From a virus (Duplodnaviria > Heunggongvirae > Uroviricota > Caudoviricetes), in the IMG/VR virus record IMGVR_UViG_648861009_000010: 42,228 nt of DNA; one strand, given 5' to 3'. This document shows, one piece after another, positions 1-27,244 of the stretch (position 1 is the stretch's first letter; every line of letters starts with the position of its first letter). The position numbers were made by a program, and so were the translations under genes. A model generated the notes under the pieces. It worked only from the letters and a program-made list of their open reading frames with translations. It was not told the origin of the DNA and made no database searches.

Positions 1-516
1 ATGAAATTTAAAAAATGTCTTCTGCCTGTGGCAACGTTAGCGTCATTCACTCTGGCAGGATGCCAGTCAAATGCTGATGATCATGCCGCCGATGTTTATC
101 AAACCGATCAACTGAATACCAAACAAGAAACTAAAACCGTTAATATTATTTCCATTCTTCCCGCAAAAGTTGCCGTAGACAACTCCCAAAATAAACGAAA
201 CGCACAAGCCTTCGGCGCGCTTATTGGTGCAGTCGCTGGCGGTGTTATTGGCCACAACGTCGGGTCTGGCAGCAATTCCGGAACGACGGCAGGTGCAGTT
301 GGCGGCGGAGCTGTTGGCGCGGCAGCGGGTTCTATGGTGAATGATAAAACCTTAGTGGAAGGTGTTTCTTTAACGTATAAGGAAGGCACCAAAGTGTATA
401 CCTCCACCCAGGTGGGTAAAGAGTGCCAGTTTACGACAGGTTTAGCCGTTGTTATTACCACGACGTATAACGAAACGCGTATTCAGCCAAATACGAAATG
501 TCCTGAAAAGAGCTAA
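1..516 (+). CDS. Host outer-membrane lipoprotein with glycine-zipper domain (YcfJ/SlyB-like architecture)
   Basis: 171-aa ORF; N-terminal signal peptide with lipobox LAGC; Gly/Ala-rich zipper segment GALIGAVAGGVIGHNVGSG; lies outside the prophage, before a strong terminator. Confidence 0.7.
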   Translation: MKFKKCLLPVATLASFTLAGCQSNADDHAADVYQTDQLNTKQETKTVNIISILPAKVAVDNSQNKRNAQAFGALIGAVAGGVIGHNVGSGSNSGTTAGAVGGGAVGAAAGSMVNDKTLVEGVSLTYKEGTKVYTSTQVGKECQFTTGLAVVITTTYNETRIQPNTKCPEKS

Positions 517-531
517 TGATCAGGAGGAGTC

Positions 532-1071
532 ATGAAGAAAGTTTTTCTTTGCGCCATCTTAGCCTCCTTAAGCTATCCGGCTATCGCCTCATCATTGCAG
601 GATCAACTCTCTGCTGTCGCAGAAGCGGAACAGCAAGGTAAAAATGAAGAGCAAAGGCAGCATGACGAATGGATCGCGGAGCGCAACAGGGAAATCCAGC
701 AAGAGAAGCAACGTCGCGCAAACGCCCAGGCCGCCGCTAACAAAAGAGCGGCAACGGCAGCGGCAAATAAGAAAGCTCGTCAGGATAAACTGGATGCCGA
801 AGCCACTGCGGACAAAAAACGCGATCAAAGTTATGAAGATGAGCTACGCAGCTTAGAGATTCAGAAACAAAAACTGGCGCTGGCGAAAGAAGAAGCCCGC
901 GTTAAGCGCGAAAACGAATTTATCGATCAGGAACTGAAGCACAAAGCTGCGCAAACCGATGTGGTGCAATCTGAAGCTGACGCAAACAGGAATATGACTG
1001 AGGGCGGTCGCGATCTGATGAAAAGCGTGGGCAAAGCAGAAGAGAACAAATCGGACAGCTGGTTTAACTAA
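532..1071 (+). CDS. Host secreted Lys/Glu/Gln-rich coiled-coil protein, function unknown
   Basis: 179-aa ORF; signal peptide MKKVFLCAILASLSYPAIA; RBS GGAGG 6 nt upstream of ATG; highly charged low-complexity body. Confidence 0.6.
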   Translation: MKKVFLCAILASLSYPAIASSLQDQLSAVAEAEQQGKNEEQRQHDEWIAERNREIQQEKQRRANAQAAANKRAATAAANKKARQDKLDAEATADKKRDQSYEDELRSLEIQKQKLALAKEEARVKRENEFIDQELKHKAAQTDVVQSEADANRNMTEGGRDLMKSVGKAEENKSDSWFN

Positions 1072-1118
1072 GCGATGTCAGTAACTTCAAGCCTATGATT
1101 CGTGAGTATAATAAATAT

Positions 1119-1143
1119 CCTCCGGCATAGCCGGAGGTTTTTC
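1119..1143 (+). terminator. Rho-independent terminator after the host gene pair
   Basis: Hairpin cctccgg-catag-ccggagg followed by TTTTT. Confidence 0.75.
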
Positions 1144-1218
1144 AAATGCGCCTATAAGGCTCTCTTACCAGCCGCGCCCTAACAGGCGCACACGATCTGA
1201 CATTTGCATCCAACTTCG

Positions 1219-2136
1219 TTACTTACGGCCCGTAAACGGGCTGCCCGGATAGGGAATCGATAACTGCTCTCCCATTTTATCCTCTTCAAGCTGGTGCTTT
1301 ATGTAATCCTGTATCTTCGCCGTGTTCTTACCCACTGTATCGACGTAGTACCCTCTGCACCAGAACTCCCTGTTCCTGTATTTGAATTTCAAATCACCAA
1401 ACTGCTCGTAAAGCATCAGACTGCTTTTCCCTTTCAGATATCCCATAAACCCCGGATACGCTCATTTTAGGCGGGATCTCCACAAGCATATGGATATGAT
1501 CTGCACAGCATTCAGCTTCCAGAATCCGTACGCTTTTTCCANNNNNNNNNNNNNNNNNNNNNNNNNNNNNNNNNNNNNNNNNNNNNNNNNNNNNNNNNNN
1601 NNNNNNNNNNNNNNNNNNNNNNNNNNNNNNNNNNNNNNNNNNNNNNNNNNNNNNNNNNNNNNNNNNNNNNNNNNNNNNNNNNNNNNNNNNNNNNNNNNNN
1701 NNNNNNNNNNNNNNNNNNNNNNNNNNNNNNNNNNNNNNNNNNNNNNNNNNNNNNNNNNNNNNNNNNNNNNNNNNNNNNNNNNNNNNNNNNNNNNNNNNNN
1801 NNNNNNNNNNNNNNNNNNNNNNNNNNNNNNNNNNNNNNNNNNNNNNNNNNNNNNNNNNNNNNNNNNNNNNNNNNNNNNNNNNNNNNNNNNNNNNNNNNNN
1901 NNNNNNNNNNNNNNNNNNNNNNNNNNNNNNATCTCCACAAGCTATATGGATATGATCTGCACAGCATTCAGCTTCCAGAATCCGTACGCTTTTTCCACTC
2001 ACACAGCTTTTCTCAAAATACTGCCTATTGCTCTACGCTTCTCTCTGTAGAACACCTGTCTTCGGTATTTTGGCGCAAAAACTATGTGATATTTACAGTT
2101 CCATCGGGTGTGCGCTAAGCTCTTTTCGTTCCCCAT
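1219..2136 (-). CDS. tnpA: IS200 transposase TnpA (HUH Y1 type), reading frame interrupted by the N-run
   Basis: Recognisable IS200 TnpA sequence on both sides of the gap; about 60 bp flanking the N-run is duplicated, so the apparent frame changes are assembly artefacts. Confidence 0.75.
1542..1930. other. Assembly gap (389 N) inside IS200, flanked by a near-identical ~63-bp duplicate
   Basis: atctccacaagc[a/t]atatggatatgatctgcacagcattcagcttccagaatccgtacgctttttcca present on both sides of the N-run. Confidence 0.95.
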
Positions 2137-2459
2137 TGGGACCCCCTTTTGATTTCTTGTTTGACACTTGCAGTTGCCAGACCGCAAGGTGTTTTAACAA
2201 ATCAAAAGGGGTTTTAATAACTGGCTCAAAGCTGAAAGCTTTCCGGAACCCCCAGCCTAGCTGGGGGTTTTCTGTGCACAAAAAAACCCTCTGTAGTAAC
2301 AGAGGGTTTTGTTCATTCATAGTGCAGGGTCAAATCATTCCCACTCAATTATTTACGATAACCATAACCAATTGAGTGATAACATTTTTCCAAATCTCAA
2401 TTTTTATCGTACCGTTTTATATACCGTCACCGGAAATCAGTACCATGAAAAATGCCATG

Positions 2460-2942
2460 CTATCTGGTCAGGGTGTCGTACTGTTTTTCACAGACTCTTC
2501 CGGCTTCGGCTGCCCGGTCAGCATACTCTGCCAGTTGTCTGTTTCTCTCGAGAGATTTACTGAGCACGTCGGCAAGCAAAACTCCGGTGTCTGCGGCTGA
2601 CGTCCCAGCGCCGACAATGGCGTTATACTGCCTGAGCTGCTCACGGATGGCAACGAGCTGTTGCTGCAACCGGCCAGCGCGAGCGGCAGCATCAAGAGCA
2701 TCATTGCGCGCCTGGTCGATCCTCTGCTGCGCTTCACGTTCATTGATCGCTTTCTCCTGTTCGTAGTGCTGACGAATTCTCTCATCTTCGGTTTTGCGGT
2801 CTTCTTTCGCCTGCGCATACCCGGCGTCGTACTGACGACTGCCGTGTACACTCCAGGCAACAACTCCTGATATGACCAGAACAGCAAGCACCGCCATGAT
2901 AATCAACTGTTTCCGGTATGCTTTTACGAATGCCCAGATCAT
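2460..2942 (-). CDS. Rz: Rz-like i-spanin (lysis)
   Basis: 160 aa; N-terminal TM helix, Q/R/E-rich coiled-coil periplasmic domain; last gene of the lysis cassette; start overlaps the endolysin stop (ATGA). Confidence 0.7.
2468..2704 (-). CDS. Rz1: Rz1-like o-spanin lipoprotein embedded in Rz in another frame
   Basis: [13 protein letters not shown] lipobox signal followed by a Pro/Ser-rich 60-aa mature peptide, entirely inside Rz. Confidence 0.6.
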   Translation of the reverse strand: MMLLMLPLALAGCSNSSLPSVSSSGSITPLSALGRQPQTPEFCLPTCSVNLSRETDNWQSMLTGQPKPEESVKNSTTP

Positions 2943-3568
2943 ACCGCCAGCACCTTACTGGCATTGATGTATCGCGCGCGCCGGTCGTCGATGCCGTTCC
3001 GGCCACCATTGATAATCAGAGTTACACGTGCAATATCGCCGGTATACTTCATGCATCCTTTGCTGGCAAAGAACCACGCCGCGCTACGAGCCGCGTATTC
3101 GTCCTGCGCCAGCAGTTCAGGACTCTCCAGCAGGTCAACCTTAAGACCGTTTCCACAGTCACGATAGTTATTCAAACCGGTAACCTGGATAAGCCCGCGC
3201 CCACGGTAGTTCCAGCCATCACCAGGGGCATTGTTCCCCATGCGTTTGCTGTACACCAGATTGGCAATCGCTCTCTGGCGCTCAAGTGGCAATGGTGGTT
3301 CGCCTGCACGTCGCCCCAATGCGTTGGCCTGTCCCTGAGTGAGACGCCCAGCCCGAACAAAGTTAGCCAGTCCGCTGACGCTGTAGTTGAAATTCTCCTG
3401 CAACCGGGTGAAGCCTCCAGACTCATGCCCGACCTGAGCAATAAACATAGCCTGATCTTCTGGTTTGCTGATACCAAACTCTTTCATCGCAGAAGTTATA
3501 TGCGAGAACCAGCGTGCGGCCAGTGCCTCGCTGATACCAGCAGCTCGCTGGAATTGTTTAATCTCCAT
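2939..3568 (-). CDS. Endolysin, glycoside hydrolase family 19 (chitinase-like) type
   Basis: 209 aa; motifs [11 protein letters not shown] and [13 protein letters not shown] recalled from GH19 phage lysins; sits between holin-like genes and Rz. Confidence 0.7.
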
Positions 3569-3866
3569 GTTTAGACCTCGATACTTTGAAAATTTGAACG
3601 ACGTTACCGCGCGTTTTAATAACCGCAGCTAGCATGACAGCGTTGATAATGACCTCAGATAAATCCACAGCCATTGGCGTACGTAACCAGATTGCATAGG
3701 CGACACGAACAGGAATACTGGCCGCAGCAACAATCAGGAAATAAGCAAGCCATCCTCCCCACCTTCGGTGTTGAGAGCCGTTACGCCGGAATGTGACAAC
3801 GCGAATTGCTATGCCAGTGCAAATAACTGCATTGGTGATAAGCAAAAAAAACTCATGCGTTACCAT
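3558..3866 (-). CDS. Small membrane protein, putative holin or antiholin
   Basis: 102 aa, 2-3 predicted TM helices, immediately upstream of the endolysin. Confidence 0.5.
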
Positions 3867-4266
3867 CGTCTTTTCTCCCCGGAATTAACTCGCGTGGATT
3901 ATCGGAACGGTGATAGAGCCATATACCAATACGCACAGCGACAATTGCTGACACGAATGCGCCTGCAGAGAAAACAATCCCTTTTTCAAAAGAGTCCTGC
4001 GTGATGGTAGGGATCAGGCTGGCTATGCCGATAAGAATTGATGCTGCTGGTTTGTAAAAGAGAAGGCCGCAAAGAAAGCTGAGCATCGACAGGAGCACCC
4101 GGCGACGGATGGGGTACTCTACTGCAGAGGTAACAAAAATTACCGCTCCAGCCAAAGCACCCAAAGCAACCTCAGGAGGAACTCCTGCTATCACCGCCGC
4201 CAGAGAACTCATGCTAAGCCACTGATTTAAAGTTTCACTGGTTAGTTGAGCTGACATGTTTTCCAC
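3853..4266 (-). CDS. Putative holin (multi-TM small membrane protein)
   Basis: 137 aa with several hydrophobic helices and a charged C-terminus; position in lysis cassette. Confidence 0.5.
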   Translation of the reverse strand: MENMSAQLTSETLNQWLSMSSLAAVIAGVPPEVALGALAGAVIFVTSAVEYPIRRRVLLSMLSFLCGLLFYKPAASILIGIASLIPTITQDSFEKGIVFSAGAFVSAIVAVRIGIWLYHRSDNPRELIPGRKDDGNA

Positions 4267-4754
4267 CGTTTATATGCATAACAACCTCCTGAACAGTAAA
4301 GCATTACGCATAATAAACCATTTATGGTTTTTGTTACTTTAACATCGTCAATTCCCTGTTTTTCATGCCGAGAATAAAGCTCACCTTTTACATGACTCTG
4401 AAGAAACAAACAGTGAAGAGCAGGTTGAATACCGCACCATTTAATGGCGCGGTAGCAGTCAAATAGAGAAATAAACACAAAAACAAAAACAACAGGAACA
4501 GCAAAATCCAACAGACTTCCCACATCCCACACGCGTGGATCAAAACCTCCCCACCACGGCATGTTGATACGTTTCCCTTTCCCAAACTTTTCTATCCAGC
4601 GATATTCTGCCTGGGTGTGTTCACGCGCAATGAAGAACGTACAACCGGCTATCGCACCGTAAGCCCAGTTTCCGGTAAAAATACCAACCAGTACCTGAGC
4701 CACAAAAGCGCAAAGCGAGTGAAGAAATGGAGTGACATCAATGCTCTTAATCAT
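4242..4754 (-). CDS. Integral membrane protein of unknown function between tailspike and lysis genes
   Basis: 170 aa; two long hydrophobic segments, Cys-rich C-terminus; start overlaps the tailspike stop. Confidence 0.55.
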   Translation of the reverse strand: MIKSIDVTPFLHSLCAFVAQVLVGIFTGNWAYGAIAGCTFFIAREHTQAEYRWIEKFGKGKRINMPWWGGFDPRVWDVGSLLDFAVPVVFVFVFISLFDCYRAIKWCGIQPALHCLFLQSHVKGELYSRHEKQGIDDVKVTKTINGLLCVMLYCSGGCYAYKRWKTCQLN

Positions 4755-7193
4755 GAAACTTCCCCATTGGTTGAAAATATGGCTCCTCCAACGCCAAGTG
4801 TATTTCGTGTTGTGCTCAACCTCAGAGGGCTGGAGTCAGAATTAGAATATCCTGTAGCAGAAATAAAAGATCCTCCACTAATAGTCAACTGCGGAACATC
4901 GGCTATATCTGAATAAGTTCTGTCAGCAACAGTATTATTTATAGCCACATATGATCCAAAAAAACTTCTTATTGTTTGGTTTTTAACTTTACTTCCTTCA
5001 ATGGTTATCCTACTACCACAGTCGGCAATAAATCCTGAATCTGCATCCAGCGTTGCATTCATAAAAGAAGCTTCAGATCTCTCTACATCAATCCATCTAA
5101 TATCTTTTGTGGGATTTGCACCAAATACATGACAAATATTAGAGTTAAACCTTACACCATCTTGGAGGTGCATTAATTTTTTTATATCTGTACCCCATAG
5201 CCTTGGAAAATTAACAGATGCTCCTGCATGGCAATCAAATCCCAGCTCAGCCCCTGAGATATCTACAGCCTTTCCTGAAATAACAGCACCAGTGTCTGCA
5301 TTAACGGCTGTTCCACAATTGCGCATATCATTACCAGCAACATCAACGCAACCCGCACCATCAATACGCACACCAAGTGCACATCCATAAAAACCTTTTT
5401 CAATATTTGGTTCAAGGACTTTACCACTTGTTTCTGCATCACTTTCTTCAACGTCATGTCGTCTTGCATCAACATATGCTGTATGAATGCAGGTTAATCC
5501 ACGATATGAGCAATGTATAGTTTTATGGTCGCGTATATTAACATTTGAACCATCTCTTACATTCCATCCTATATAACAATAGCTTGCACTTGACCCCTGA
5601 AAATCTGNNNNNNNNNNNNNNNNNNNNNNNNNNNNNNNNNNNNNNNNNNNNNNNNNNNNNNNNNNNNNNNNNNNNNNNNNNNNNNNNNNNNNNNNNNNNN
5701 NNNNNNNNNNNNNNNNNNNNNNNNNNNNNNNNNNNNNNNNNNNNNNNNATCCACGATATGAGCAATGTATAGTTTTATGGTCGCGTATATTAACATTTGA
5801 ACCATCTCTTACATTCCATCCTATATAACAATAGCTTGCACTTGACCCCTGAAAATCTGCTTTTAACATTATAAATACAATTAACTGACGCAACCGTACT
5901 CTCTGTGCACCGTTCAAACTTGCTTACAGGCATTGATGCCTTGACATTATTTACCAGTTGCAGGGAAGAGTATCTGCTATAAGAAAAATCACATACGTAA
6001 TACCCTTCTGGCATATATGCAGCAACACTTTCCTCATCAGGAGCACATCCGGTATGATATGCACTAATTTTTGCACCAAAACTACCATGAATTCCAACGT
6101 AGAACTTTCGAGCACCTGAATACGGATAGAAATTAAGTTCAGCTTTTTGAGTTACAATAAATGCACAAACATCGCTATCATCTCTATTTTCTTCGATCTG
6201 AATAGCAAATACAGGACTTTTTGCTGCATCGCAAATGTAAAATAAATACTTGTATTCGTAATACGTTCTAACGATTTTAGTAAACAAACGAGTGTCAGAG
6301 AAAACCACTGAGTCTTCTGATGTTATTTTAATCCAAGACAAATCAACACCTGAACTGAATTCAATTTGATAGTTGATAATATGCCCGGTCTTAATTCTTA
6401 TTTCGCAGAAAGCATTACCACCATCCCACATAGGTCTCATTGACTGGGCTGCAATGATTGCATCTTTGAGTGTAGGGTAATCACCCCATTCGCCAACAGT
6501 AATAACAAAAGTATAATATGAGTTAAAAACAGCGGCATTTTTGCCTTTGGATATCAACTCCTTAATCATAAAAATATTATCTTCGTAATCACAAGGAGAA
6601 ATTATATCCCTCATTTTGCTTTGAAATGTTCGTTGTCTTGCCCCGCTTCCTGACGGTATAAACCAACCAAAACCACCAACAACCCCGGCGATTGCAGCAT
6701 CGACATAATTACGCATTGAGCGATTATTTACAGCGTCCTGCTCAAATGATGGATCTGCAAGGTTAGAAATTTTGTTTTGCTTTGCATCGTAATATTTTGC
6801 AAGCAAAGATGGTTTCATCAATGCACGTCTGAACCACCCAAAACATCGCTGGATCAGCATCGTCAGGTAGTCAAATGCATCTTCATGAACTTCGGGGAAA
6901 AATTTTCCCTGATTGCGAAGATCAGTCTCCTGCACCACATCAAGCACACGCTCTATCGTAATTCGCCAGCCAGCAGCAAGCGGCGACGGGAGAACCACTT
7001 CACCGCCACTATAAGTGCCCGCTCCAGTTACCTTATAACCGGTATCCAGAACCAATTCTGTTACGTTCCCGTTCAGGTCAGACACCTGAACAACCAGGTC
7101 GGTTTTTTTGAAAATACGGAAGGTATACGGAAATGATGTCGTAACGCCGTTACCGGTGTATTCGTTGTGGTCAACTTCGGTTGAGACCGTCAT
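4751..7193 (-). CDS. Tailspike: T7-fibre-type N-terminal adaptor domain plus C-terminal parallel beta-helix domain; reading frame broken by gap and frame change (ORFs 5790-7193 and 4751-5917)
   Basis: N-terminus MTVSTEVDHNEYTGNGVTTSFPYTFRIFKK resembles podovirus tail fibre/tailspike anchor domains; C-terminal part has beta-helix-like repeats (NCGTAVNADTGAVISGKAVDISGAELGFDCHAGAS); SD GGAG 7 nt before ATG at 7193; 111-bp exact duplication flanks the N-run. Confidence 0.6.
5608..5748. other. Assembly gap (141 N) inside the tailspike, flanked by 111-bp exact duplicates (5497-5607 and 5749-5859)
   Basis: Identical sequence atccacgatatgagcaatgtatag...ccctgaaaatctg on both sides of the N-run. Confidence 0.95.
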
Positions 7194-7946: not shown

Positions 7947-8672
7947 GTGGAGATAACCACCATGGCTAATGCTCAAACTGCCATCTTCAAATTTGAATCT
8001 GTTAACCCTATCCGTTCCATCATTATCGATGGCCAACCATGGTTTGTAGCCCAAGACGTTTGTAGTGCGCTGCGTATCCAAAACGTCACCCAAGCACTTG
8101 AAAAACTGGATGATGATGAAAGGTCTATGTTCAACATAGGGCATGAACATCGTGCAATTTTTGACAGCCGAGTAAAAGAGATCAACATCATCTCCGAGTC
8201 AGGCCTCTACACACTGATCCTCCGCTGCCGCGACGCAGTGACACCAGGCACTATCCCCTACCGCTTTCGTAAATGGGTTACAGGTGAGGTTCTTCCTCAG
8301 ATCCGCCGCACCGGAAGTTACATTAAAAACTCGCTCCCGCAGGAAGAACGCATAAAGATAGTTGCCGACCAGGTAGCCAACGCCACAGCATCAGCAGTGA
8401 TGCAGGCAATGAAGATAGAGAACAAAACCTACAGTGCCCCACTGAAGCCCGGCTACCGCAGCCTGATTCATTCTCCGTCTGGTGTTCTCGGCCTGACGGA
8501 GAACTCACTGCTGATGAATCTGCTGAACCAGTTACAGGAAGACGGGCACGACGTATCGGGCGCGGCGGCGGAGCTGACCACCATGTTCTGCTACATTGTT
8601 GGTGTGAGCAAATGCCTGCGTGATATCCAGACCCACGCGGAGTACATCAACGACAAGGCTGGGTTCTTCTGA
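7947..8672 (+). CDS. BRO-N domain antirepressor-like protein (Ant-like)
   Basis: N-terminal BRO-N signature (IFKFESVNPIRSIIIDGQPWFVAQDVCSALRI ... SGLYTLILRCRDAVTPGTIPYRFRKWVTGEVLPQIRRTGSY); start may be ATG 7947 or 7962. Confidence 0.7.
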   Translation: MEITTMANAQTAIFKFESVNPIRSIIIDGQPWFVAQDVCSALRIQNVTQALEKLDDDERSMFNIGHEHRAIFDSRVKEINIISESGLYTLILRCRDAVTPGTIPYRFRKWVTGEVLPQIRRTGSYIKNSLPQEERIKIVADQVANATASAVMQAMKIENKTYSAPLKPGYRSLIHSPSGVLGLTENSLLMNLLNQLQEDGHDVSGAAAELTTMFCYIVGVSKCLRDIQTHAEYINDKAGFF

Positions 8673-21018: not shown

Positions 21019-21476
21019 NNNNNNNNNNNNNNNNNNNNNNNNNNNNNNNNNNNNNNNNNNNNNNNNNNNNNNNNNNNNNNNNNNNNNNNNNNNNNNNNNN
21101 NNNNNNNNNNNNNNNNNNNNNNNNNNNNNNNNNNNNNNNNNNNNNNNNNNNNNNNNNNNNNNNNNNNNNNNNNNNNNNNNNNNNNNNNNNNNNNNNNNNN
21201 NNNNNNNNNNNNNNNNNNNNNNNNNNNNNNNNNNNNNNNNNNNNNNNNNNNNNNNNNNNNNNNNNNNNNNNNNNNNNNNNNNNNNNNNNNNNNNNNNNNN
21301 NNNNNNNNNNNNNNNNNNNNNNNNNNNNNNNNNNNNNNNNNNNNNNNNNNNNNNNNNNNNNNNNNNNNNNNNNNNNNNNNNNNNNNNNNNNNNNNNNNNN
21401 NNNNNNNNNNNNNNNNNNNNNNNNNNNNNNNNNNNNNNNNNNNNNNNNNNNNNNNNNNNNNNNNNNNNNNNNNNNN
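21019..21476. other. Assembly gap (458 N) within the head-tail joining genes
   Basis: N-run; the upstream minus-strand gene runs into it. Confidence 0.95.
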
Positions 21477-21611
21477 CATGATTGCCTGACTGTCGGCGTT
21501 CCAATCAACATGGATAAAACCAAATCCCCATGCGCACATCATGCTGACCACGAGGCTGTCGGACCTGCTGGGTTCGGCGGAAAGGTCAGGGACTGGAACG
21601 ACCGGACACAT
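21477..21611 (-). CDS. 5' fragment of a structural gene truncated by the assembly gap
   Basis: ORF begins at 21611 and runs into the N-run; 45 aa visible. Confidence 0.35.
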
Positions 21612-21629
21612 GCCGAGACGTGGCGTGCA

Positions 21630-21968
21630 TCATGGGCTGACCATGCAAACAGAGCACTGGCGAACTTCAGCAGCGGATTTATCCGGCTCGCCGGTTGCAG
21701 GTGCGATCGCCATGTCGGTGATCTGCAGGTCTGCGCTACGGTTAACGCCGTCATCAGTTTCGCGGGCAGACAGTCCGCGAATTACCGCCTTAGCAGTAAT
21801 CATCACTTCGGTTCCTACACCCTGCGGTTGCGCCTTGAGCTTATTCAGCGTGTCATTGTTCAACGTGATGCAAAGCCCCCATGGATATTCGTCGCGGTTT
21901 TTGGTTTCTCCGCTCTCGTCCTGGTAGCTGTCGGTGCCGGTTTTGAGGTTGACCAGTTCCATATACAC
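21630..21968 (-). CDS. Hypothetical head-associated protein
   Basis: 112-aa ORF in the head gene run. Confidence 0.5.
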   Translation of the reverse strand: MYMELVNLKTGTDSYQDESGETKNRDEYPWGLCITLNNDTLNKLKAQPQGVGTEVMITAKAVIRGLSARETDDGVNRSADLQITDMAIAPATGEPDKSAAEVRQCSVCMVSP

Positions 21969-27167: not shown

Positions 27168-27244
27168 GTGGCATTAGCTCAGTTGGACAGAGCAACCGCC
27201 TTCTAAGCGGTTGGTCGCAGGTTCGAATCCTGCATGCCACGCCA
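27168..27244 (+). tRNA. tRNA-Arg (anticodon UCU), phage-encoded
   Basis: Cloverleaf folded by hand: acceptor GTGGCAT/ATGCCAC, D-stem GCTC/GAGC, anticodon stem ACCGC/GCGGT with loop CTTCTAA, T-arm GCAGG-TTCGAAT-CCTGC, discriminator G, encoded CCA. Confidence 0.85.

Follow-up and report, generated by a model that had tools for sequence, protein, structure and literature searches.

A tailspike gene split in a draft Escherichia coli prophage scaffold is very probably one intact gene encoding a beta-helix protein

Closest described tailspikes and the catalogued gene

Tailspikes of the epsilon15 type and the Carin-1/Dpo31 tail fibre begin with an N-terminal anchor homologous to that of the protein described here, whereas the C-terminal modules that they carry are unrelated to it in sequence. 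The N-terminal domain of T7 gp17 likewise serves to attach a trimeric fibre or spike to the tail of a podovirus; it resembles this anchor weakly in fold, without membership at the sequence level. For the receptor-binding part, the described counterpart is the tail spike of JEP4 (QOC67869.1, 716 aa), a plaque-forming P22-like Lederbergvirus (MT740315) that encodes its spike in a single CDS and shares the same module at 98% nucleotide identity from gene nucleotide 826 to the end. The spikes of JEP4 and of P22-like prophages (for example WP_338799719.1 of E. coli MS 198-1) start with the P22 head-binding domain PF09008 and not with an epsilon15-type anchor, a difference in front of one and the same module that, from the sequences compared, is a modular swap. 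The publication on JEP4 reports the host range of the phage and nothing on its tailspike or receptor. More distant beta-helix tailspikes and depolymerases, including Andhra gp15, CBA120 TSP1-4, HK620, phi29 gp12 and the Klebsiella K1 lyase, share 7–16% sequence identity.

The gene itself is an ordinary one and is already catalogued. It encodes WP_000218903.1, a protein labelled 'hypothetical protein' or 'phage tail protein' in prophages of the same type and gene order as the one in the window, the 42,228-nt stretch of viral DNA analysed here. Once a duplicate, a run of N's and one A are removed from the window, the gene is nucleotide-identical over 2190 nt to that of MS 198-1, and the draft's extra A and scaffold filler are the only differences from it; ten other complete E. 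coli genomes with WP_000218903.1 are 98.8–99.9% identical to the corrected gene, and phage HEMP4 (OR424387) is 99.6% identical. We conclude that the locus very probably holds a single, intact tailspike gene belonging to an epsilon15-like prophage beside guaA, distorted by two defects of the draft assembly.

The split locus and its counterparts in finished genomes

The initial annotation described two open reading frames in different frames, a run of N's and exact 111-bp duplicated flanks, and each of these elements was found, with the gene on the minus strand (Table 1). The two frames overlap by 128 nt. The 111-bp direct duplication around the N-run is exact and far above chance expectation for a 42-kb window, and no further copy of the 111-mer was found elsewhere in the window. 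The frame change, first assigned to unique sequence near 5860–5917, could be placed at a single homopolymer run that indeed lies in unique sequence, 2–5 nt beyond the right copy of the duplication. The run sits 113–116 nt inside the right contig, and the left contig stops one base short of it. Past codon K444 the shifted frame reads 23 codons to its stop, and the 467-aa frame is made up of 444 true residues followed by 23 out-of-frame residues; the 388-aa frame begins with 18 out-of-frame residues, continues through 84 codons of duplicate and N filler, and ends with true residues 444–729. Collapsing the duplicate and the N's leaves the frame unaffected because together they amount to 252 nt, or 84 codons (0 mod 3). 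A gene made continuous by collapse of the duplication, which the initial annotation named as a sign of an artefact, is therefore not exactly what results: the frames remain apart after collapse, which we rejected as a sufficient cure for the split, and a single 729-aa open reading frame appears when one A is removed as well.

Table 1. Coordinates of the tailspike locus, of neighbouring features and of the other draft gaps discussed, in window numbering.
Feature	Position	Strand	Remark
Tailspike gene, draft form	4751..7193	(-)	Minus 252 nt of duplicate and N's and minus one A, a single 2190-nt ORF of 729 aa
Upstream tailspike frame, 467 aa	5790..7193	(-)	From the ORF list
Downstream tailspike frame, 388 aa	4751..5917	(-)	From the ORF list
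N-terminal virion-anchor module, ~aa 1-178	6658..7193	(-)	Common to very many enterobacterial prophage tailspikes with differing C-termini
Receptor-binding module, right-handed parallel beta-helix, ~aa 185-729	4754..6641	(-)	Interrupted in the draft by the extra base and filler
Left copy of 111-bp duplication, end of left contig	5497..5607		Exactly identical to 5749-5859
Run of 141 N's	5608..5748		Scaffold filler
Right copy of 111-bp duplication, start of right contig	5749..5859		Exactly identical to 5497-5607
Premature stop of shifted frame	5790..5792	(-)	23 codons past K444, inside right duplication copy; ORF list and translation
Homopolymer with one extra base, true frame-change site	5861..5864	(-)	AAAA on coding strand (TTTT on + strand), codon K444
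170-aa ORF	4242..4754	(-)	Directly downstream of tailspike gene
Homopolymer single-base indels against MS 198-1	1453, 1538, 1994, 2011, 2286, 4333, 4490, 5864
Gap 1, N-run	1542..1930		Flanks 1476-1541 and 1931-1997 overlap, 66 against 67 nt, with one indel
Gap 3, N-run	21019..21476		Followed by 189-nt plasmid fragment at 21477-21665
tRNA-Arg gene, anticodon TCT	27168..27244	(+)	In prophage, upstream of portal gene block

Finished genomes carry the same region as one gene. In finished E. coli MS 198-1 a single CDS covers it (WP_000218903.1; NZ_CP146687.1, 1501187–1503376), 2190 nt long and coding for 729 aa. Aligned globally with this CDS, the collapsed window gene of 2191 nt shows a single difference, an extra A that turns AAA into AAAA, with zero substitutions. 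In gene numbering the affected codons read GTT for V443, AAA for K444 and GCA for A445. A megablast search of complete E. coli genomes with positions 4751–7193 returned full-query matches on 11 chromosomes, each spanning 2190 nt, and the match in phage HEMP4 likewise spans 2190 nt. By alignment the 111-mer is single-copy in MS 198-1 and HEMP4, and the 2190-nt spans of the 12 finished records imply the same for all of them. The initial annotation had taken the duplicated flanks for a contig-end overlap, and they are single-copy and contiguous in the finished genomes, as is characteristic of a scaffold-gap artefact; judged from these comparisons, the true gap is negative, an overlap of 111 bp, and hence no sequence appears to be missing.

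The extra base is private to the draft. When a 151-nt query over the A-run was compared with complete genomes, all 16 matches spanned 150 nt and none reached 100% identity. Alignment of the codons themselves gave GTT-AAA-GCA in both module copies of MS 198-1, in phage JEP4 and in HEMP4, and AAAA solely in the right contig of the window. An exact-sequence look-up of the truncated 467-aa product returned one record, EFI20656.1, 'predicted protein [Escherichia coli FVEC1302]', from scaffold GG774912.1 of assembly GCA_000163215.1. The cluster to which this product belongs has 190 members, among which the full-length ones have 729 aa and one is found on 262 contigs. The window hence corresponds to this draft scaffold, and in the deposited FVEC1302 record the tailspike appears as a 467-aa "predicted protein" plus smaller pieces.

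These observations suggest how the draft came to its present form. Two contigs overlapping by 111 bp would have been left unmerged and scaffolded with 141 filler N's, doubling the 111 bp, and the consensus of the right contig would overcall one base in a short homopolymer, AAA becoming AAAA at codon K444. Disagreement over the length of the A-run probably blocked merging of the contigs, after which the scaffolder would have put in an N-run of estimated size. We also considered the second copy of the receptor-binding module as the reason for the contig break points and set it aside; the two MS 198-1 copies are identical for several hundred nucleotides around the junction. The practical lesson concerns annotation and host-range prediction. 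The corrected 729-aa protein is nucleotide-identical to the gene of a finished genome, and the prophage tailspike should therefore be scored as intact.

Error signature of the draft

A genuine one-nucleotide insertion in the A-run of FVEC1302 would have produced a fresh tailspike pseudogene that has lost most of its beta-helix, with the gap still an artefact. The deposited consensus does contain the extra base, which lies in unique, not duplicated, sequence, and decay of prophage tail genes does occur; nevertheless we consider a true insertion improbable. Across positions 4250–7193 the window differs from MS 198-1 by three single-base homopolymer indels and zero substitutions, and such a ratio of private indels to substitutions in 2.9 kb is typical of sequencing error and not of evolution. 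Further against a true insertion, the A-run adjoins a contig end, the allele sits on one record among the hundreds of contigs in the cluster, and assembly defects are found at all three gaps of the window. Were the extra A true, the frameshift would be very recent, unaccompanied by any other change in 2.19 kb, and would leave an anchor-only stub, and the prophage would have lost adsorption unless some full-length protein still arose by rare slippage at the A-run. A base-calling error, one of the options named by the initial annotation, is strongly favoured instead: the change is a single-base alteration of a run, private to one draft scaffold and beside a contig end, and nearby indels exceed substitutions, the pattern of a homopolymer error. 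That the extra base is such an error rather than a mutation, and that it kept the contigs from merging, we infer from this pattern.

The same signature extends over the neighbouring sequence. Between the window at 1–7193 and MS 198-1 we counted nine single-base indels, eight of which fall within runs of 3–7 identical bases. Isolated homopolymer indels cluster in window positions 1–5900, and none was seen in the remaining 34 kb of the prophage; this uneven rate may be attributed to contigs that are small, gap-bounded, at contig ends or affected by repeats. The FVEC1302 draft is probably the product of 454 pyrosequencing. Titles and abstracts in the literature did not yield a sequencing method for this strain.

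The open reading frame of 170 aa directly downstream of the tailspike gene contains two one-base deletions, T6 to T5 and A6 to A5. Both deletions are private to the draft, all 11 close finished genomes spanning 503 nt for a 501-nt query, and at this position the finished relatives have a CDS of 94 aa and, after it, a holin gene. The 170-aa frame is probably an artefactual fusion through the frame-shifting homopolymer deletions at 4333 and 4490.

Two further gaps were inspected. The overlap at gap 1 lies inside an IS200C transposase gene, where five single-base indels relative to MS 198-1 cluster. At gap 3, the N-run is followed by about 189 nt with 96% identity to the MobQ/MobA-MobL relaxase gene of ~4-kb mobilisable plasmids of E. 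coli and Salmonella, with the capsid staple gene gp10 on one side and the following prophage gene on the other. In finished genomes with 100%-identical flanks of gap 3 the flanks are joined directly, which suggests that the plasmid fragment is the end of a chimeric contig rather than an insertion.

One beta-helix module behind several anchors

The joined protein matches a tail fibre family over its entire length, with residues 1–729 aligned to positions 1–729 of the 729-position PHROG profile phrog_5662 'tail fiber protein' (E = 0, 1636 bits). NCBIfam gave no match to the joined protein, and Pfam gave none at E ≤ 0.1 to the two window frames or to the 170-aa neighbour. An AlphaFold2 monomer model, built from the cluster representative, which carries S450A relative to this protein, has a mean pLDDT of 87.9 and values above 95 for residues 180–729, the junction included. 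The downstream part, in which the initial annotation had recognised beta-helix-like repeats, is a right-handed parallel beta-helix of approximately residues 185–729, the receptor-binding fold of beta-helix tailspikes, and the structure prediction of the joined product that it had called for gave a continuous helix, the junction at K444 falling within a strand of a single, unbroken beta-rich domain. An alignment of 18 module proteins is likewise unbroken over K444|A445, a position within the conserved block CIYNxxANFQGSSAS.CYIGWN.RDG.

Judged by homology and fold, residues 1–130 or so would form an N-terminal domain that docks the trimer onto the podovirus tail, followed by a helical neck (approximately residues 100–175) that is predicted with low model confidence, while the beta-helix would bind, and probably cleave or modify, a host surface polysaccharide. 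The product may thus be a trimeric tailspike with an enzymatic role on surface polysaccharide.

Unbroken alignment and fold of the module, the lack of a Shine-Dalgarno sequence and the full-length PHROG 5662 match are the reasons for which we reject two readings that would keep the frames as deposited. The first supposes separate receptor-binding proteins, an anchor protein of 467 aa and a C-terminal beta-helix protein translated on its own, and draws on the presence of long open reading frames in different frames with a 128-nt overlap. It is exceedingly unlikely: the second frame has no Shine-Dalgarno-like sequence ahead of its candidate starts (5917, 5893 and 5869), contrary to the separate ribosome-binding site that such a gene should have; the split falls inside the conserved block and a beta-strand of one beta-helix; the module is one open reading frame in every relative, the isolated phage JEP4 included; and the downstream piece would be left without a virion anchor and the upstream piece with about half a beta-helix. 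Programmed recoding, in which the ribosome shifts by +1 or transcription slips at the A-run so as to connect the frames, can draw on the position of the frame change at a homopolymer (AAAA G), yet it is scarcely credible, with a single frame and AAA in 16 of 16 finished genomes and two phages, so that neither a two-frame layout nor a slippery site is conserved and recoding is not needed; a four-base run is also far shorter than known slippage tracts.

The intact single gene carries an anchor of a widespread kind. Nucleotides 1–536 of the gene find matches of 94–99.6% identity in hundreds of E. coli genomes, with unrelated C-termini downstream, and nucleotides 1–346 share ~75% nucleotide identity with the tailspike of Salmonella VB_ST_E15. 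Residues 1–202 match the Carin-1/Dpo31 tail fibre in the PDB (8ck1, 28lx) at E 2e-31, and the anchor also matches many tail-spike PHROGs. By sequence, the ~200 N-terminal residues are of epsilon15/Carin-1 type. The initial annotation had named a T7-fibre-type anchor, a label that is appropriate at most for a distant resemblance of fold and role. Foldseek returned weak matches to N-terminal chains of T7 gp17 (7boz, 7ey9, 7ey7 and 9jz0; E 5e-3 to 4e-2, TM(target) 0.44–0.57) for a model of low confidence at residues 87–174. Membership in Pfam Phage_T7_tail (PF03906) was not supported, with 11.1 bits against a cut-off of 25.2 (E 0.32) over residues 135–161 only, and hhalign of the N-terminal profile, which is shallow (Neff 1.6), with the N-terminus of a PF03906-positive member (E 8.6e-19) gave a probability of 0.1%.

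The receptor-binding module recurs at ~40–90% identity behind other N-terminal anchors, which, besides the epsilon15-type anchor found here, are PF09008 (P22 head-binding), PF18668 (TSP1/Gp66-N), PF12571 (tail-collar) and PF03906 (T7 tail). Its occurrence behind at least five virion anchors is textbook modular exchange, not a new phenomenon, and a mildly useful biological point. Proteins from Aeromonas and Salmonella are included among these combinations, and some copies of the module carry extra C-terminal GDSL esterase domains (PF13472/PF00657).

MS 198-1, and also EC332, contains the module twice, on the epsilon15-like prophage at guaA and on a P22-like prophage. The second copy of MS 198-1 (NZ_CP146687.1, 1687847–1689904) follows a head-binding domain and lies beside intS/tRNA-Arg/yfdC. 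Two prophages resident in MS 198-1 carry the module and would therefore share one receptor specificity.

The prophage in the window lies beside guaA and has annotated genes for the gp10 capsid staple protein and a core protein of the T7 gp14 family, a context that agrees with the epsilon15-like type. Positions 8195–42228 align to the MS 198-1 prophage at 95–97% identity with several unalignable patches, and the tailspike-lysis end is essentially identical; on these alignments the prophages are mosaics. The window prophage also contains a tRNA-Arg gene, which is annotated in the MS 198-1 prophage too.
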